From Candidatus Nanoarchaeia archaeon (lineage in GTDB: Archaea; Nanobdellota; Nanobdellia; SCGC-AAA011-G17; JACPNG01): a stretch of 64,000 bases of DNA. Below are positions 1 to 56,581 of the stretch, in pieces. Both the position numbers and the translations under genes were made by a program. The stretch is from positions 936 to 64,935 of the forward strand of contig JASLOB010000001.1 in the NCBI GenBank assembly GCA_030745695.1, written 5' to 3'. Each line of letters begins with the position of its first letter. Position 1 is the first letter of the stretch. The notes beneath the pieces are model-generated. The model was given only the letters and a program-made list of their open reading frames with translations. It was not told the origin of the DNA and did no database searches.

Positions 1-2905
1 CTCAAAACAGCGATGAAGGACATGGCAAGCTGTGATAAGCCCTGGGTAGGTGCACGCAGCCTTTGAACCAGGGATGTCTGAATAGGACTTCCGATATATT
101 CCGAAAGGAAAGCCAACTCGGTGAATTGAAGCGTCTTAGTAACCGAAGGAAAAGAAATTAACCAAGATTCTGTGATTAGCAGCGAGCGAAAACAGAAGAG
201 AGCAAACTGAATTTCTTATAGTAATATAAGATAGATGTGGTGTTGTAAGACTCACTTTCGATCCTCCAAACTCAGCCAAAGTTTCCTGGAAAGGAACGCT
301 ATAAAGAGTGATAGCCTCGTAGGTTGAACTAAAAGGATTTGTGAGTATCTTGAGTAGTGTTTCTTGGATATGAAGCATGAAGCTAGGAGTCATTAACTTC
401 TAACTCTAAATATGTTTTGAGTCCGATAGCGTATAGTATAGTGATAAAACGTTGAAAAGTACCCTTAGCAGGGTGTGAAAAGATCCTGAAACCTAATAGT
501 AATAGAATGATACTGCTATTCGTAGTTGTATCGTACGTTTAGAATAACGGGCCAGGGAGTTGATCTAAGTGGCGAGAATAATTCGTAATAAGAAGCATTC
601 GTAACGAAAGTAAAATCTCGCAGTTTACGAGGAGATAGGTTTTAATCAGTCTAAGTCACTTGGGTCTAACCAGAAACCAAGCGATCTAATCTTGGGCAAG
701 GTGAAGTGGTCTTAACAGACCATGGAGGCCTGAAGGGATTCTGTGTGCATGCGACCCTATGACCTGAGATTAGGGGTGAAAAGCTAATCGAGCTTGGTGA
801 TAGCTGGTTCCTATCGAAATATGCCGAAGTATAGTCTCAAGCGAGATAGCTAGGATTGTAGAGCTACGGATTTGGAGGTTAGGGGTAGAAATACCTCGCC
901 TTCTTGTCCAACTCCAAATGTCCTAGCGTTGTAGACCTTGGGAATCAGGGGAGCGCGGTAAGCGTGTTTTCCAATAGGGGAACCACCCTCTCTATAGTTA
1001 AGGTCCCAAAATGCTAATTAAGTGTGAAAGGGTGAAGGGTGTATATCTGCTTAGACAGCTGGGAGGTTGGCTTAGAAGCAGCCATCCTTTAAAGAAAGCG
1101 TAATAGCTCACCAGTCAAGGAGGTATGCCCCGAAAATGGACGGGGCTAAATTAGCTACCGATACTATAGACTCCAGAAATGGATGTGGTAGATAGGCGTT
1201 CTGTAAGGACAGAAGTTTTCTTGTAAAAGGAGATGGACCTTATAGAAATGAGAATCCTGGCGGTAGTAGGATCAGAACAGAGTGAGAATCTCTGATACCG
1301 TAAGACTAAGGTTTTCTTAGCAATATAGTTTAGCTAAGAGTAAGTCGATCCTAACTAAGTTCCTAATTGGACACTTGGGAAAGGGAAACAGGTTAATATT
1401 CCTGTACTATCTAAATTTTTGCTTAAGTTAAACTTTGGGATAAACTAACAATTCTCGTCGGGATTGTTCTTAAAAACAAGTTAGTGGAGTACTGTAATAG
1501 TGAGAAACTGACTAAGTTTAGGAAGCTAGCAATAGTTTAGTTGAGTCCTAGAGTCCGTGAAAGAAGCTTAAGGCCGGTTTAGATAATCGTACCCAGAACC
1601 TGCACTGGTGGTCTAGCTGAGAAGGCTAAGGTATGAGAGAACAATCTAACTAAGGGAATTCGGCAAAATAGCTCCGTGTCTTCGGTATAAGGAGTCCCTG
1701 CGATTGTTAGTTTAGCTAGCGATTACAGGGTGCAATGACAAGGGGGGTCCGACTGTTTAACAAAAACACAGCAATCTGCTAGCCAGCAATGGTTTGTATA
1801 GATTGCCACGTCTGCCCAGTGCTAGTACTTGAAACTCTTTTCCAAGAGAGCTAAGAGCTAGTAAACGGCGGGAATAACTATAATTCTCTTAAGGTAGCGA
1901 AATGCCTTGCCGTTTGAATGACGGCCTGCATGAATGGCGTAACGAGATCTCCACTGTCCCTAGTTAGAGTCTCCTGAACACACTATTCTGGTGCAAAAGC
2001 CAGAGATGCCTAGTGGGAAGTAAAGACCCCGTGGAACTTTACTGTAGTATGTTGTTGCGATGTGGAACTTATTGTGCAGTATAGGTAGGAGTTGCTATGG
2101 CTTGGTCGTCAGATCAAGTCTAGACAAAAGTGAGATACTACCCTTTAAGTTTTATATTGCTCACCTCATGGGACATCAGCATGCGGACAGTTTGGCTGGG
2201 GCGGCACCCTGCTGAAAGGATATCAGCAGGACCCAGAGGTAAGCTCATCCAGTTTAGAAATCTGGAGTAGAGTGTAAGAGCAAAAGCTTGCCTGACTGTG
2301 TTTTTAACAGTAGGAAACGCAGGAACGAAAGTTGGGTCTAGTGAACGTCTGTACCTCTTTAATGGGGGTCAGATATTATAGAAAAGCTATCCCGGGGATA
2401 ATTGAGTCGTAGCGCCTAAGAGCTCAGATCGACGGCGCTGCTTGCTACTTCGATGTCGGCTCTTCCTATCCTGGGTGTGCAGAATTGTACACAGGAAGGG
2501 TTACTCAATTAGTTTTTACTTTTGTAAACTACGTTGAAACAATAATACTCTTTCATGTCCACTGTGGGCGCCCAAGGGTGAAGGTGTTCACTTATTAAAA
2601 GGGATCGTGAGCTGGGTTAAGTACGTTGTGAGACAGTATGTATAATATCTACTAGGTATGTCCAAGATCTGAATGGAAGGACCCTTTAGTACGAGAGGAA
2701 CAAGGGTTCGGCGCCTCTAGTTTACCTGTTGTCTGATAAGGCAGGCAGGGCAGCCACGCGCTATGGGATAAGAGCTGAAAGCATCTAAGCTCGAAACCCT
2801 CCGTGAAAATAGATTTAAAGCACTCTTCATAACAGGAGTTTGATAGGCTCGGGGTGTAAGCTTCAAGGCAACGAGAAGTTCAGCCTGCGAGTACTAATAG
2901 CTTAA
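1..2905 (+). rRNA. rrl: 23S (large subunit) rRNA, 5' end truncated by the window edge (about 40 nt missing); 3' end approximate
   Basis: Conserved LSU motifs appear throughout (5' region gcgatgaaggac..., gaaaagtaccc...gtgaaa...cctgaaacc, GTPase centre, sarcin-ricin-like agtacgagaggaac, peptidyl transferase region). Length is about 2.9 kb. No 5S gene follows. Confidence 0.9.
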
Positions 2906-3006
2906 ATTGCCATATCTATGTATGTTTTATTTTTTTTAAAATTCTTTATATTATATTAATCAATTAGATCTCTCTTAAGAATCATATTCCTAAAAATCAA
3001 TAAAAT

Positions 3007-6622: not shown

Positions 6623-6932
6623 GTAGGAAGGTGTCTAACTTTCGAGATTATCTTGAGGAAAGTCCGTCCACCAATTATAGGTTGCTTCTGCAAAGAAGTC
6701 CCAGAAATGGGAGGCAACCGCTAAGAAACGACACGGCCTATTAGAGCAAGGATGTTGTGAAAGTTTTAGTAATAGAACTGAGATAACCAACTGAGTATTT
6801 TGATAGGATACGTTGAAACGACGAGTCCCAACCGGTGCAAGTCTTAGACGCTTAGTTGAATGTTAGAATGAACTTTCAATGATCCATTTTTAATGGTTAG
6901 AGTTCAACAGAAGATGGCTTATGCCTTCCTAC
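6623..6932 (+). ncRNA. rnpB: RNase P RNA (archaeal type)
   Basis: The P4 5' strand (gaggaaagtccg at 6654..6665) and P4 3' strand (acagaag..ggcttatg at 6906..6923) are both present. A P1 helix forms between gtaggaagg and ccttcctac. Confidence 0.8.
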
Positions 6933-6933
6933 T

Positions 6934-7710
6934 TTAATATATTAATTCTCCAGTTCTACTTGAATTTAATCCCCTACTCTCAATTCTAATCTCTCCTCTA
7001 GATGTAACTTTACCAATAACTTTAGACTCAATATTATGTGTTCTTGCAACCTCAATAACTTCTTTTGGTTCAGGAGTTATGATAATCATGCCTTGTCCCA
7101 TATTCCAAGTCCTATATGCTTCTTCATCTGTAACATTTCCATGTTGTTAACAATAAAACATTAGTTCAAAAGGATTAAAAGGATTATAAATATCTGCACC
7201 TAATCCATTTGGTTTTAAAATCCTAGACAATTTTCCTGGAATCCCACCTCCAGTTATATGTGCAATTCCATGTATCTTAGCTTTTGGTTCTCCACCAAAA
7301 CCTCCAAACATATCAACAACTGCTTTAGTATAAATTCTCGAAGGATGTAAAACTAAATCTCCTAAACTTTCAAAACCATACTTAAATTTATGCCATCCAT
7401 CTCCATTAGGAACTAGGATATCTGCTCTTGAGAAACATGATTCATAGACAAAACTAGCTTCAAATAAAGGTTTTTTCTTTTTTAAAGAATCTTTAGATAT
7501 TTCTAAGTTTACTTTAAAATCCTTAAATGGGAGGTCAATTCCATCTGGATATAATTTTTTAGCTAATATTCCTATTTTAGTACCTTGATCCATAACAAAT
7601 TGATCTGCTACTGTAGGTTCTTCTATTTTATGATTTTCATGTATAAATGTCCATAAATGATTATAACAGTTTATACCCATTAAGTATTTAGATTTAGTTA
7701 ATAGTTGCAT
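6934..7710 (-). pseudogene. purM: purM (AIR synthetase) C-terminal half remnant with an in-frame TAA at 7147..7149
   Basis: The PurM C-domain motifs IHGIAHITGGG and TWNMGQGM both occur in one reading frame, and that frame is interrupted by a TAA. The N-terminal domain is absent here; it lies at 14212..14877. Confidence 0.7.
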
Positions 7711-12110: not shown

Positions 12111-12758
12111 ATGAAAATGTTAGAAAAAACCCCAATTAATGCTTCCTGGCTTGGATCTCATGAATATTGTGAGTGGAAGTGGTATCTAGAAAATGTACTA
12201 AAAGAGAAAGTTCCAATAACACAATCAATGATTGTTGGAAAAAATATTCATCAAGAAAAAGAAGATAAATTTAAAGAAGTTGCTGTTCCAACTACACCTG
12301 AAGAATTTCTAAAATCTAAAGTTTATACAATAACTAAAGAGATGTATCTAAAAGAAGAATTTGATGATTTTATTTTAAAAGGAAAGATAGATGAATTAGG
12401 GGTTGATACAAATAATTTATATGTTATTGATGATAAACCAAGAGCAAAACCCTATCTAGGAGTTAAAAGACAGATATGGGCTTATTGTATTTTAATAAAA
12501 GAATTTGTAAATAAAAATTATCCTGAACATTCTAATAAAAAAGTTTTAGCAATTTTAAGAGATAGAGATTCTAATGTAGAAATATGGAAGGAAGAGTTTA
12601 ATGAAGAAAATCTTAATGAAGTTTTTAGTGTAATCAATAGAATGTTGTTATTATTTAAAAAAGAGATTAATCCTGAACATAATAATTATTCATATAAATG
12701 TAAGGCTTGTGTTTTACATAAAAAGAATCAATTGTTATCTCATTTGATAAAGGCATAG
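12111..12758 (+). CDS. Cas4-like/RecB-family PD-(D/E)xK nuclease (DUF83-like) with a 4-Cys cluster
   Basis: One N-terminal Cys (EYCEWKW) and three C-terminal Cys (YKCKACV) are present. The core reads GKIDEL...YVIDDK. Confidence 0.55.
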   Translation: MKMLEKTPINASWLGSHEYCEWKWYLENVLKEKVPITQSMIVGKNIHQEKEDKFKEVAVPTTPEEFLKSKVYTITKEMYLKEEFDDFILKGKIDELGVDTNNLYVIDDKPRAKPYLGVKRQIWAYCILIKEFVNKNYPEHSNKKVLAILRDRDSNVEIWKEEFNEENLNEVFSVINRMLLLFKKEINPEHNNYSYKCKACVLHKKNQLLSHLIKA

Positions 12759-14211: not shown

Positions 14212-14877
14212 TCAAGATATCATCAATAAACAGATAGCATCTGCTTTTACTGCTGCTGGAGGTACTTTTGTAGCAAGTAGTGTTATCGCTCCAACTGCCA
14301 AACATCCTACATCTGCAAGTTCTCTTGGACCAAGTCCTGATTTAGGGATAGCATATTCTATACTACAATCTACCCCACTCCCCTTACAGAATTCTTTAAA
14401 TGCATTCTCTTGAGGAGGTCTTTTAGCACCAGGACTGGTCTTAGCATCAATGATTTTTAATTTAGTTATCTCCCCATTTTTTTGAAAAACTTCTAAAAAA
14501 TCAGGTTCTTTTTTGAAAGTTCGTTCAAAATTTACCCTTATAAAATCCCTAGTACTCTTTCCACCCCTCACAACTGCATCATCACAAACCATAGCAAATA
14601 AATCATGAGCAACAGTTTTATGTTTAGCCATTCTTTCGGCTATTTCTATTTTAGTGCCAACCCCATCAAATCCTAAATTCATATAAGTATCATCTGGTAG
14701 CCCTCAAACATTCACTGCTCTAAGGCCTGAAAAATCAGAAAAGATTTCAACAACTTCCCCAAGATTTCCTTTTCTATTTTTCCAAGTAAGTTTAGCTGCT
14801 TCATAAAGAACTTTTGATGCATCATCACCAAGTTTGATATTTACTCCAGAATTTTCATAATTTGATCTTTCTTGCAT
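14212..14877 (-). pseudogene. purM: purM (AIR synthetase) N-terminal half remnant with an in-frame TGA at 14704..14706
   Basis: The PurM N-domain signatures YENSGVNIKLGDDA and LGFDGVGTK...DLFAMVCDDAVVRGG...DVGCLAVGAI are present. A TGA interrupts the frame 57 codons after the ATG. The remnant ends where the 7710 fragment begins in a PurM alignment. Confidence 0.7.
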
Positions 14878-52219: not shown

Positions 52220-53707
52220 TTATTTTACAGGATTTAATCCAGCCCCCTCTAATATTCTTCTTAATTTATCTTCTTGTACCTCTCCTTGTGTAATGCTACA
52301 TAATAATGCCATATTTTTTCTTAATCCAATTGAAGTTCCTTCTGGAGTTTCTATAGCACATAATCTTCCCCAATGTGTTGGATGTAAAGCTCTAGCTTCA
52401 AAATTCTCTTGTGTAGAACTTAATAATGAAACAACTCTTTGTAAATGAGATAAGGATGCCAAATAGTTTATTCTATCAATATTTTGACTTACTCCTTTTC
52501 TACCTCCAACCCAAGTTCCAGTAGCCATAGCACTTTGGATTCTAGAAGTTAATAATTTTTCTCTAATAACAATTTTTAGTGAAGTATATTTTCCTCTTTT
52601 TACTAATCTTTGAAAATTATATAAAATATCATTAATTAAAATTCTTAGATTAACTCTAAACAAATCAGAAATTAAATCTCCACTTAATTTTAATTTTTTA
52701 TTCATATAATGATCTTTATCATTTGGTTCAACTCCCTCTCTTGAAACCATTAAAAATCTCTTGATTAATTTACATAAAGTATAAGCTTTAAGGATTCTAT
52801 CTTTAGGAGAAGTTCCTAAATGAGGTAATAAATATTTATCTAAATTCTCTCTTGTTTTCTCTAATTTAATGTCTAAAGGTTGTGCTATCCCTATTTTTTT
52901 AGCAATAAATTCTAAAGCCTCTTCTTCTGTTCTTAATTCATTAGATTCATATAAATTAATGAATAAATCATCATATTCTTTTTCTTCTGAAATAAATCTT
53001 GCAATTTCTTGGTCTCTTATTAATCCTAAAGCTTTTATCACAGCAATAATTGGAATTCTTTTAAATCTTGTAAAAGATAAGTACATTAATCCATCTTTCA
53101 TTTGTTCTACTATATGGGGAATTCTATAAGGCCCTCTCTCAGAAAATAATTTAGCAGAATATTTACTTGGACCTACTTTATTTTTTTGTATCATAACTTT
53201 ATTAGATGCTAAATCCTCTACTGTTATCAAAACTCTTTCATTTCCATTTAAGACAAAATAACCACCAATATCATCTGGATCTTCGAAATTTTTAATTAAA
53301 TCTTCCCTCTTCATATTGTTTAAATGACAATATTTAGATTTGACCATTATTGGAAGTCTTCCAATCTCAACAGTAAAATTTTCTCTTTGTATCCCTTCTA
53401 TAATTGCCCCAACATCTAAGAATATTGAAGCAGAATAAGATAGTTGTCTAAGTCTAGACTCCATAGGATAAACATTTCTTTTAGATCCATCTGCCTCAAT
53501 AATTTGTGGCTTTGTTATCCATATTTTGTTAAATTTAATTTTAAAATCTTTTACTTCTTCAGGTGTTATTGTTGGGATAATTTCACCCATCTCATTAACA
53601 ATTTCTTGCATTTTATGATCTACAAAATTATTAAATGATTTTATATTTTCCTCTACAAAACTTCTCTCTTCAAAATATTTTTTGATTAGAATATCTTTTT
53701 TAAGCAT
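52220..53707 (-). CDS. rpoB2: DNA-directed RNA polymerase subunit B'' (N-terminal part of split B)
   Basis: Homologous to the Rpb2 N-terminal region. Confidence 0.9.
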   Translation of the reverse strand: MLKKDILIKKYFEERSFVEENIKSFNNFVDHKMQEIVNEMGEIIPTITPEEVKDFKIKFNKIWITKPQIIEADGSKRNVYPMESRLRQLSYSASIFLDVGAIIEGIQRENFTVEIGRLPIMVKSKYCHLNNMKREDLIKNFEDPDDIGGYFVLNGNERVLITVEDLASNKVMIQKNKVGPSKYSAKLFSERGPYRIPHIVEQMKDGLMYLSFTRFKRIPIIAVIKALGLIRDQEIARFISEEKEYDDLFINLYESNELRTEEEALEFIAKKIGIAQPLDIKLEKTRENLDKYLLPHLGTSPKDRILKAYTLCKLIKRFLMVSREGVEPNDKDHYMNKKLKLSGDLISDLFRVNLRILINDILYNFQRLVKRGKYTSLKIVIREKLLTSRIQSAMATGTWVGGRKGVSQNIDRINYLASLSHLQRVVSLLSSTQENFEARALHPTHWGRLCAIETPEGTSIGLRKNMALLCSITQGEVQEDKLRRILEGAGLNPVK

Positions 53708-53939
53708 CTACTACCACCCTATAAAATATTGCTTCTTTAGCAGATTTACTTTTTCTAACTATTTTTAATACAGCTCCTTTTTCAGCATTTAATGCTTTAA
53801 CAACAGGATCATTAGCAAAAATTCTAGGTAACTGTCTTATTGAAATATTAAATTGTTTCAATAAATCAGCTATCTCTTTTTTATTTAACACACTATGTTT
53901 TGGTACAAAGTTATGTTCTAATATGTTGAATTCTTCCAT
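53700..53939 (-). CDS. rpoH: DNA-directed RNA polymerase subunit H
   Basis: MEEFNILEHNFVPKH... The ATG at 53987 used by the track would overlap the tRNA; the internal Met is the likely start. Confidence 0.75.
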   Translation of the reverse strand: MEEFNILEHNFVPKHSVLNKKEIADLLKQFNISIRQLPRIFANDPVVKALNAEKGAVLKIVRKSKSAKEAIFYRVVVDA

Positions 53940-53952
53940 TTTTTTAATAAAT

Positions 53953-54086
53953 TGGGCCGGACGGGACATCCAACAGACTATTTTCATAGCCTAAATTTGA
54001 ACCCGCGACCACTTGCTTTCTTCTGGATTAAAAGGTTCACCAATTCTTGATTTCAAGTGCTCTAATCCAGGCTGAGCTACCGGCCC
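53953..54086 (-). tRNA. tRNA-Lys(TTT) precursor, best fit three introns (anticodon stem 30/31, canonical 37/38, T-loop)
   Basis: Assembling the mature sequence by hand gives gggccggtagctcagcctggattagagc-a-cttgc-cttttaa-gcaag-tggtc-gcggg-ttcaaat-cccgt-ccggccc-a, which matches the archaeal tRNA-Lys consensus. The proposed introns are 54053..54036, 54027..54017 and 53994..53966. Confidence 0.55.
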
Positions 54087-54089
54087 AAA

Positions 54090-54187
54090 CGCCCTGACCG
54101 GGATTCGAACCCGGGTTGTAGCCTCGACAGGGCATCACGGTATATGATTAAATATACTTACGTGCTAGGCCACTACACTATCAGGGC
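54090..54187 (-). tRNA. tRNA-Asp(GTC) precursor with a 25-nt intron in the 5' strand of the anticodon stem (between positions 28/29)
   Basis: Removing 54158..54134 gives a perfect cloverleaf with anticodon arm tagcc-ctGTCga-ggcta and T-loop ttcgaat. The gene is 3 nt from tRNA-Lys. Confidence 0.55.
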
Positions 54188-56405: not shown

Positions 56406-56480
56406 TGCTCCTGCCGGGATTTGAACCCGGGTCTCAGGCTCGAAAGGCCCGCGTCATTGGCCGGGCTAGACTACAGGAGC
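56406..56480 (-). tRNA. tRNA-Glu(TTC)
   Basis: Hand fold: acceptor gctcctg/caggagc, anticodon arm cgggc-ctTTCga-gcctg, T-loop ttcaaat. Confidence 0.75.
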
Positions 56481-56486
56481 ATACTC

Positions 56487-56581
56487 TGGGCCTAGACGGA
56501 TTTGAACCGTCGACCTCTGGCTGACCTAAGCCAAAGTGGCCATATAAGACCAGCGCTCTAACCAAGCTGAGCTATAGGCCC
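56487..56581 (-). tRNA. tRNA-Ile(TAT) precursor with a 20-nt intron at the canonical 37/38 position
   Basis: Ile-type body gggcctatagctcagcttggttagagcg, anticodon stem ctggt/gccag, loop cttata|a after removing 56542..56523. Confidence 0.55.

Follow-up and report, generated by a model that had tools for sequence, protein, structure and literature searches.

The stretch of DNA analyzed here, called the window throughout, comprises 64,000 nucleotides of contig JASLOB010000001.1 from Candidatus Nanoarchaeia archaeon (assembly GCA_030745695.1). Positions 53953..54187 coincide exactly with the bodies of two tRNA genes, tRNA-Asp(GUC) and tRNA-Lys(UUU), both on the minus strand and both interrupted by introns. 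An earlier reading made from the letters alone (the sequence-only reading) had proposed such a tandem, with neither gene contiguous. On the minus strand, the order is tRNA-Asp, a TTT spacer (54087..54089), tRNA-Lys, 13 nt, and then the RNA polymerase genes rpoH, rpoB'', rpoB' and rpoA'. The 3-nt distance between the tRNA genes and their adjacency to rpoH are as previously described. In the direction of transcription, the pair lies immediately upstream of rpoH.

The tRNA-Asp(GUC) gene (54090..54187, minus strand, as for all exons and introns below) has a precursor body of 98 nt, reduced to 73 nt by splicing. Exon 1 (54159..54187) provides positions 1-28 and exon 2 (54090..54133) positions 29-73. 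They are separated by a 25-nt intron (54134..54158) that interrupts the anticodon stem in its 5' strand, between positions 28 and 29 (28/29). Read from 54187 to 54090, the gene is GCCCTGATAGTGTAGTGGCCTAGCACGTA[agtatatttaatcatataccgtgat]GCCCTGTCGAGGCTACAACCCGGGTTCGAATCCCGGTCAGGGCG, with the intron in the inner brackets. The predicted exon-exon junction (^) is GCACGUA^GCCCUGUC, or in shorter form CACGUA^GCCCUG.

The tRNA-Lys(UUU) gene (53953..54086) is more fragmented, with a precursor body of 134 nt and 76 nt after splicing. Exon 1 (54054..54086, positions 1-30) is followed by an 18-nt intron at 30/31 (54036..54053), and then by a micro-exon of only 7 nt, CCUUUUA (54029..54035, positions 31-37), that bears the entire anticodon. 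Next come an 11-nt intron at the canonical site 37/38 (54018..54028), exon 3 (53996..54017, positions 38-59), a 29-nt intron at 59/60 in the T-loop (53967..53995), and exon 4 (53953..53966, positions 60-73). From 54086 to 53953, the gene reads GGGCCGGTAGCTCAGCCTGGATTAGAGCACTTG[aaatcaagaattggtgaa]CCTTTTA[atccagaagaa]AGCAAGTGGTCGCGGGTTCAAA[tttaggctatgaaaatagtctgttggatg]TCCCGTCCGGCCCA, again with introns in the inner brackets. The predicted exon-exon junctions are CACUUG^CCUUUUA^AGCAAG and GGUUCAAA^UCCCGUCC, the last also written GGUUCAAA^UCCCG. tRNA-Lys is therefore a multiple-intron gene, and tRNA-Asp carries one non-canonical intron. Neither gene encodes CCA. The G+C content is 61% in the exons and 30% in the introns, compared with 28.4% for the window.

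Other kinds of interrupted gene were considered and rejected. Split or permuted tRNA genes were ruled out, since the exons of each gene follow one another in colinear order, within spans of 98 and 134 nt. Self-splicing group I or group II introns were also ruled out, as the introns measure 11-29 nt and no Rfam intron model matched them even at E <= 10.

The intron calls were checked against a strict definition of a perfect class I cloverleaf, which demanded that each of the 21 stem pairs be formed, that the loops be of canonical size, and that U33, a purine in position 37 and a TTCRA T-loop be present. Exactly 1 of 2527 single deletions from the Asp precursor produced such a cloverleaf, and it is the 25-nt removal at 28/29 that had been proposed earlier. 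For Lys, up to three deletions were allowed, each bounded by a bulge-helix-bulge (BHB) structure with all four pairs of the central helix (4/4). Among the 2856 length-compatible combinations of this kind, exactly 1 gave a perfect cloverleaf, and its product is again the one proposed earlier. Shuffling of the three Lys intron segments yielded a solution in 1 of 300 trials. Removal of the introns thus leads to unique canonical cloverleaves with sensible anticodons, GTC for Asp and TTT for Lys. The yes/no call of ARAGORN was also tried as a test of uniqueness and dropped, because it accepted 323 of 2112 single-deletion variants and did not discriminate.

Covariance models pointed in the same direction. 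They were built only from relatives with intronless genes or genes with canonical introns. The Asp-specific model (R2) matched 54093..54185 at 46 bits and left exactly two pairs broken, 27-43 and 28-42, both of which are restored by the splice at 28/29. The Lys model aligned exon 1 and then exon 3 across a 38-nt jump, and failed at the interrupted T-arm. In agreement with the sequence-only reading, the models from relatives gave no alternative structure of a different isotype, whether contiguous or with a single intron.

Because the genes are interrupted by introns, standard tRNA finders miss both of them. With the gathering score as threshold, the Rfam tRNA model overlooked both, while it found four other tRNAs in the window. 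ARAGORN, run on the unspliced DNA, miscalled the Asp gene as 'tRNA-??? (ttaa)' and missed the Lys gene. After removal of the introns, it reported tRNA-Asp(gtc) of 73 nt and tRNA-Lys(ttt) of 76 nt. A scan of the window for further hidden tRNAs, based on acceptor and T-arm and allowing for a 59/60 intron, recovered only the seven known genes.

The junctions were then compared with the motif recognized by the archaeal splicing machinery. The BHB geometry is reportedly that given by Marck and Grosjean in 2003, namely an outer helix (h), a central helix (H) of 4 bp and an inner helix (h'), with two 3-nt bulges on opposite strands that are said to be cleaved after the second bulge nucleotide. The definition also fits the relatives' canonical 37/38 introns, which served as internal validation. 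In a register that gives the mature sequence, all four junctions show a 4/4 central helix. At random positions, a 4/4 central helix occurs with a frequency of about 2.5%. Shuffling of the introns produced it at the junctions set by the cloverleaf with frequencies of 0.6%, 1%, 14% and 4%, one value per intron, and the joint chance is about 3e-7.

The four motifs differ in how closely they follow the strict form (^ here marks the cut within a bulge). The Asp 28/29 junction is a relaxed HBh' motif. Its central helix is CACG/CGUG and its bulges are UA^A and AU^G, with 6 bp in the inner helix (GUAUAU/AUAUAC) but no more than 1 bp in the outer helix. This motif is conserved in the two closest relatives (L001 and L002). 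Lys 30/31 is a strict hBHBh' motif (CACU/GGUG, bulges UG^A and AA^C) with 3 bp in h' and 4 bp in h, and the latter can be extended to about 11 bp by pairing of the D-loop and the 3' strand of the D-stem with nucleotides 32-37 and the 5' end of intron 2. Lys 37/38, with its 11-nt intron, is a relaxed hBH motif or bulge-helix-loop (CUUU/GAAG, bulge AA^A) in which the inner helix is absent. Lys 59/60 is near-strict hBHBh', with UUCA (positions 54-57) pairing with UGGA, bulges AA^U and UG^U, and the 5-bp T-stem as outer helix. Its intron forms an inner hairpin of 8 bp with a GAAA loop, preceded by a U·U mismatch that adjoins the first bulge. Every junction can thus form a BHB or a recognized relaxed variant of it, a check that had been suggested together with the original intron assignments.

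For tRNA-Lys, the three segments named by the sequence-only reading were upheld in length (18, 11 and 29 nt), and the first two also in position. The register of the T-loop intron needed correction. It had been placed after the whole loop sequence, i.e. at 60/61, where 0 of 4 central pairs form, and only 59/60 (53995..53967) fits a BHB. The mature product is identical in both cases. Thermodynamic folding with ViennaRNA gave z-scores of -3.3 and -3.4 for the precursors. The unconstrained minimum free energy fold already contains the Asp motif, with CACG/CGUG, the bulge UAA and the 6-bp inner helix, and the unconstrained centroid contains the Lys 59/60 motif with its 3-nt bulge UGU and 4-bp helix.

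We compared the two genes with orthologues in 15 relatives (L001-L015). The Lys gene could be resolved in 14 and the Asp gene in 11 of them, the Asp genes of L015, L003, L006 and L014 being unresolved or absent. In most of the relatives, which are metagenome-assembled genomes (MAGs) of Woesearchaeota or Nanoarchaeota, the Asp-Lys pair lies upstream of rpoH. Including the window, the 27 orthologous genes contain 41 introns, with 0-3 introns per gene at varying positions, and the mean load is 1.5 introns per Asp or Lys gene across 15 lineages. The central helix is 4/4 in 32 of the 41 introns and 3/4 in 8, and the remaining one is a mis-solved junction.

The architecture of the window's Lys gene (30/31, 37/38 and 59/60) is shared by L001 and L002. 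Other Lys genes have introns at 30/31 and 37/38 (L003, L005, L007, L015), at 37/38 only (L004, L008, L011, L013), at 59/60 only (L006), in the D-loop and at 37/38 and 59/60 (L009), or in the D-loop and at 59/60 (L012), and the gene in L010 is intronless. The Asp intron at 28/29 is likewise shared with L001 and L002. Elsewhere the Asp gene is intronless (L004, L008) or interrupted in the D-arm (L005), at 37/38 (L007, L013), at 37/38 and 59/60 (L009, L011, L012), or at about 22/23 and 59/60 (L010). Thirteen of the 27 orthologous genes escaped detection by the Rfam tRNA model at gathering score, and all of those with a 59/60 intron were missed or truncated. The copies free of introns (tRNA-Lys of L010, tRNA-Asp of L004 and L008) reached 60-75 bits with this model, and only for them did ARAGORN report the correct isotype.

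The comparison of the window with L002 is particularly informative. The Lys exons are identical at 76 of 76 positions, whereas the three Lys introns measure 18, 11 and 29 nt in the window and 17, 13 and 19 nt in L002, with substitutions and indels in all of them. The Asp exons show four differences, which amount to two compensatory pairs, 7-66 (A-U to G-C) and 27-43 (U-A to C-G). The two halves of pair 27-43 are located on different exons, so that the pair spans the intron.

The wider alignments agree with this picture. The spliced products pair as a cloverleaf in 99.6% of cells for Lys (12 distinct sequences) and in 97.4% for Asp (11 sequences), with 7 and 8 pairs, respectively, changed on both sides. 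In control experiments, 0 of 500 shuffles matched this covariation, and partners slid along the sequence paired in 28-50%. Most of the covarying pairs are distant from the splice junctions. The intron strand of the central helix also follows changes in the exon strand, with TTCA:TGGA/TGAA in some genes and TTCG:CGAA in others, or CACT:AGTG/GGTG and CACC:GGTG. Judged from these alignments, the exons are conserved and covary as tRNA, and the introns are variable or absent in orthologues.

These data bear directly on the possibility that the two loci are decaying tRNA pseudogenes with insertions, and that functional Asp and Lys tRNAs are encoded elsewhere. Rejection of both genes by standard finders would be in line with decay, and the tRNA genes that we inspected are those of the 64-kb window. 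However, conservation of the exons is perfect although the inserts diverge, base pairs that span an insert have been kept by compensatory changes, a BHB bounds every insert at exactly the register that restores a perfect cloverleaf, and the arrangement has been retained in dozens of lineages. We therefore regard pseudogenes as very improbable.

An artificial origin of the insertions, for example by chimeric joins in a metagenome, has to be considered for an AT-rich window derived from metagenomic data. Data from ENA/Tara Oceans, JGI and Logan contain 23 contigs with an identical form of RpoB'', the polypeptide encoded next to the tRNA genes, and the Asp-Lys pair is identical at 235 of 235 positions in six fetched contigs from independent projects and assemblers. 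Moreover, L001, L002 and L084 show the same architecture as the window with diverged intron sequences. Assembly or sequencing errors are thus an explanation to which we attach next to no weight.

We conclude that the locus encodes functional, co-transcribed tRNA-Asp(GUC) and tRNA-Lys(UUU) that would be spliced by the tRNA-splicing endonuclease EndA and then by an RtcB-type ligase, and we consider this reading correct with a probability of about 90%. The gene structure, the BHB geometry, the conservation and the covariation are direct observations, and cleavage, ligation, splicing order, enzyme type and co-transcription with rpoH are deduced from them.

Several points weigh against this conclusion. 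The evidence for splicing is at the level of DNA, so that cleavage and ligation are inferred. The solver that places the splice boundaries optimizes the cloverleaf, and pairs flanking the junctions are therefore not independent evidence. The outer helix of the Asp motif amounts to 1 bp and an inner helix is lacking in the 11-nt Lys intron, and a classical strict alpha4 EndA is not expected to cut either of them (PMC3239211). Our view of the host's tRNA set is limited to the 64-kb window. Finally, no genes for EndA, RtcB or a CCA-adding enzyme were found in the window or in the fetched loci. The search for EndA and RtcB used Pfam and NCBIfam models on 32 open reading frames (ORFs) of the window, with permissive thresholds included, and EndA was also sought by tblastn with the M. 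jannaschii protein (validated against PDB 1A79) in the window and all loci.

The 30/31 and 37/38 introns of tRNA-Lys are structurally interdependent. In the primary transcript, the outer helix of the 37/38 motif has only 1 bp, and it grows to 5-7 bp once the 30/31 intron is removed (7 of 7 genes with both introns; from 1 to 7 bp in the window). Nucleotides 32-35 have a double role, as outer-helix partner in the 30/31 motif and as central-helix strand in the 37/38 motif. It follows that the two introns of the anticodon arm cannot be presented simultaneously. The D-loop and the 3' strand of the D-stem pair with nucleotides 32-37 and the first 6 or so nucleotides of the 37/38 intron, again in 7 of 7 genes. 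This duplex between D-arm and intron 2 has an energy of -8.9 to -13.3 kcal/mol, compared with -3.4 to -5.3 kcal/mol for shuffled introns. Furthermore, the 37/38 intron tracks changes in the sequence and length of the D-loop, as in GGAUUAGAG:CUUUUAAUCC, GGAAUCAGAG:CUUUUAUUCC and UUGGUAGAG:CUUUUACCAA.

These observations suggest a pathway. The Asp and Lys genes would be transcribed as a single precursor, in which EndA would recognize the four BHBs and cut after the second nucleotide of each 3-nt bulge. The 59/60 intron, for which the T-stem would act as outer helix, would be cut independently. Nucleotides 32-37 and the 5' end of the 37/38 intron would pair with the D-loop and the 3' strand of the D-stem, and this pairing would create the outer helix that the 30/31 motif needs. 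After excision of the 30/31 intron, the anticodon stem would be free to fold, and would in turn act as outer helix for the 37/38 motif. In view of this structural interdependence, the likely order on our model is 30/31 first and 37/38 second, with 59/60 independent of both. Sequential removal of neighboring introns has already been described (PMC8450103). An RtcB-type ligase would then join the exons to give canonical tRNA-Asp(GUC) and tRNA-Lys(UUU). CCA would be added after splicing, since it is encoded in neither gene.

The motifs also make demands on the enzyme. Classical alpha4 and alpha'2 endonucleases require the strict 3-4-3 motif, whereas HBh' and hBH are tolerated by (alpha-beta)2 and epsilon2 endonucleases (PMC3239211). 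At our locus, two motifs out of four are relaxed (HBh' in Asp, hBH at Lys 37/38), and therefore the host EndA, if the modeled motifs are its substrates, must have broad substrate specificity. In several DPANN lineages, Kaneta et al. (2018) describe alpha4 EndAs that bear an 'L3' insertion, and they connect these enzymes with increased tRNA disruption (PMC5829648). By analogy with that account, our best guess for the host enzyme is an alpha4 EndA with the L3 insertion. The locus offers controlled examples that link tRNA disruption in DPANN archaea to the specificity of the splicing endonuclease. Its set of substrates, with a strict motif, HBh', hBH and an interdependent pair, is well suited for testing the breadth of DPANN alpha4/L3 enzymes.

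Introns of this kind are well documented. tRNAs of Thermoproteales are interrupted at non-canonical positions that include 30/31 and 59/60, with up to three introns per gene (PMC4090602, PMC8450103). The likeness of our locus to species such as Pyrobaculum calidifontis (Sugahara et al., 2007-2009, as reviewed in PMC4090602 and PMC8450103) extends to the maximum of three BHB introns per gene, the positions 30/31 and 59/60, closely spaced introns of which one has to be removed before the other, and gain and loss between close relatives. The Thermoproteales are hyperthermophilic crenarchaeotes with an (alpha-beta)2 EndA, whereas our introns are found in a mesophilic marine DPANN archaeon of 28% GC, and are AT-rich and very short (11-29 nt). 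Position 28/29 was not found in the position lists consulted, but these lists end in 'etc.'.

Another comparison is with ARMAN-2 (Ca. Micrarchaeum), also a DPANN archaeon, in which 56% of tRNA genes are disrupted (Fujishima et al., 2011, PMC3239211). As in the window, non-canonical introns are numerous, common finders miss the genes, and 59/60 T-loop introns and relaxed hBH motifs occur. However, ARMAN-2 belongs to the Micrarchaeota and has a three-unit epsilon2 EndA (PMC3239211), whereas our host is affiliated with the Woesearchaeota. For DPANN in general, Figure 7 of Kaneta et al. (2018) shows increased tRNA disruption including multiple introns, based for Woesearchaeota on one MAG and tRNAscan-SE 2.0 (PMC5829648). 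That paper also takes incomplete DPANN tRNA sets as an indication of undetected disrupted genes. No gene-level description was found in its text, in contrast to the comparatively validated examples of 'hidden' genes presented here. In a search of the open literature for Woesearchaeota and tRNA introns, it was the only relevant paper found.

The view that multi-intron tRNAs are known mainly from Thermoproteales, expressed in the sequence-only reading, is therefore outdated, given the reports for ARMAN-2 (PMC3239211) and for DPANN more broadly (PMC5829648). Introns at 30/31 and 59/60, the maximum of three introns, and multi-intron tRNAs in DPANN archaea have all been published, so the phenomenon as such is already known and will not surprise a specialist. 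What the locus newly adds is a well-supported example of BHB-intron tRNA genes, of value also for its interdependent intron pair and its connection to the split tRNA-Lys discussed below. Such examples matter for annotation. A tRNA that seems to be lacking from a DPANN genome can owe its absence to failed annotation and not to loss of the gene, and this bears on claims that DPANN archaea have a reduced, host-dependent translation capacity.

The position 30/31 in tRNA-Lys has a further parallel. In Nanoarchaeum equitans and Staphylothermus, the trans-spliced tRNA-Lys(CUU) is joined at exactly 30/31 (Randau, 2005; Chan et al., 2011, PMC3218864, Table 1), also at a BHB junction. There, the halves are encoded at separate loci, whereas the gene in the window is contiguous, cis-spliced and specific for the UUU isoacceptor. 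A metagenome scan for the Lys 30/31 architecture gave 114 matches, 80 of which were fetched and are the basis of the following counts. About 21 of the 80 were pattern matches other than tRNAs and were discarded, and 53 were tRNA-Lys genes with a 30/31 intron, 43 for UUU and 10 for CUU (L031, L033, L035, L045, L046, L059, L073, L081, L100, L101), the latter cis-spliced as well. In these environmental genes, the 30/31 intron co-occurs with introns at 37/38, at 59/60 or in the D-arm. None of the environmental matches was a tRNA-Lys gene with four introns, the maximum being three.

The locus and the environmental genes thus provide cis-intron counterparts of the split tRNA-Lys of N. equitans. Cis-introns at 30/31 in both Lys isoacceptors of DPANN-like archaea, as read from the sequences, would fit a split gene derived from an intron-containing gene, which we offer as a lead. 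A more far-reaching reading combines an intron load like that of Thermoproteales in Woesearchaeota and related uncultivated low-GC archaea, which to judge from literature on other DPANN may be carried with only a modified alpha4-type EndA, an ancient Lys 30/31 intron representing the cis-spliced ancestor of the split gene in N. equitans, and introns at 30/31 and 37/38 that co-evolved as one unit with an obligatory order of removal. We consider this combination tentative and, taken as a whole, rather doubtful. If true, it would bear on the dispute whether split tRNAs are ancestral or derived, and it would mean that the 37/38 intron was recruited to build the outer helix presenting the 30/31 intron.

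Within the environmental set, we also noticed a second clade of tRNA-Lys(UUU) genes (L039, L041, L055, L028, L030 and others) with an extra intron in the D-arm and the T-loop sequence UCCGAAU, in which C replaces the near-universal U at position 55.

The genomic context of the pair deserves separate mention. The rpoH gene (53700..53939, minus strand; 79 aa, with its ATG at 53939) is the first gene of an rpoH-rpoB''-rpoB'-rpoA' operon and is separated from tRNA-Lys by 13 nt (53952..53940). The end of tRNA-Lys(UUU) is 11-35 nt from the start of rpoH in 14 lineages, and an rpoH homologue lies downstream of 40 of the 43 environmental UUU genes, but of 0 of the 10 CUU genes. A spacer of 13 nt is too short to hold a promoter of its own for rpoH, and so the RNA polymerase operon is probably transcribed together with the multi-intron tRNA precursor and released from it. 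The longest rpoH ORF (53700..53987, minus strand) has 95 aa, or 89 aa in some public calls, and overruns the 3' exon and intron 3 of tRNA-Lys. Gene callers also extend rpoH into the tRNA gene. The form compatible with the tRNA is the one of 79 aa starting at 53939 (MEEFNILEH...), which is called in some assemblies.

With the tRNA genes so near to rpoH, maturation of the precursor would be physically coupled to the 5' end of the operon transcript. This coupling, conserved in so many lineages, and the persistence of the Lys 30/31 intron over wide divergence lend some attraction to the idea that the introns, although genuine, serve mainly in something beyond their own removal. They might shield the genes from integrating elements, control the RNA polymerase operon by slow, ordered maturation, or give rise to stable and functional circular intron RNAs. 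However, the intron sequence beyond the BHB strands is poorly conserved and variable in length, and introns have been lost outright from the Lys gene of L010 and the Asp genes of L004 and L008. C/D-box guide RNAs within the introns were ruled out on account of size, 11-29 nt being too short, and of the absence of a match to any Rfam family. A main role of this sort is therefore unlikely, and we prefer the interpretation that the introns are simply spliced out of functional tRNAs.

The affiliation of the host was derived from the same contig. Its archaeal markers include an archaeal large-subunit rRNA, RNase P RNA, the split rpoB and rpoH. The closest genomes are MAGs of Candidatus Woesearchaeota, with RpoB'' identities of 96% (L001) and 90% (L002), followed by values of 72-47%. 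NCBI places the phylum Woesearchaeota in Nanobdellati, i.e. DPANN. By these sequence relationships, the host is an uncultivated marine Woesearchaeote and thus a DPANN archaeon, and its 28% GC and its relatives bear out the AT-rich, DPANN-like genome that the sequence-only reading had described.

A few other features of the window are recorded here. The window starts inside an archaeal 23S rRNA gene (1..2917, plus strand; model positions 38-2987) without a large insertion, and a complete archaeal RNase P RNA is found at 6623..6932 (plus strand, 153 bits). The ORF at 12111..12758 (plus strand) encodes a Cas4-like PD-(D/E)XK nuclease (NCBIfam TIGR00372 cas4 at E = 3e-14, which does not reach the curated cut-off, and a weak match to Pfam PDDEXK_1), and neither a CRISPR array nor other cas genes were noticed nearby. 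Two short ORFs on the minus strand, 7147..7710 and 14212..14682, about 6.5 kb apart, match AIR-synthase/PurM-like proteins only in part, one being a C-terminal domain and the other an N-terminal fragment, and may be gene fragments or stand-alone domains.

Altogether, the seven tRNA genes of the window contain five introns. The one outside the Asp-Lys pair is in the tRNA gene at 56487..56581 (minus strand), which ARAGORN labeled '???' and which we assigned by hand as tRNA-Ile(UAU) with a canonical 37/38 intron of 20 nt. Its motif is a strict BHB with central helix CUUA/UAGG and an inner helix of 5 bp. The gene adjoins tRNA-Glu(UUC) (56406..56480, minus strand), which is without an intron in the window, whereas its orthologue in L002 (110 nt) appears to bear one. 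The presence of tRNA-Ile(UAU) suggests that AUA is decoded without an agmatidine-modified CAU tRNA.

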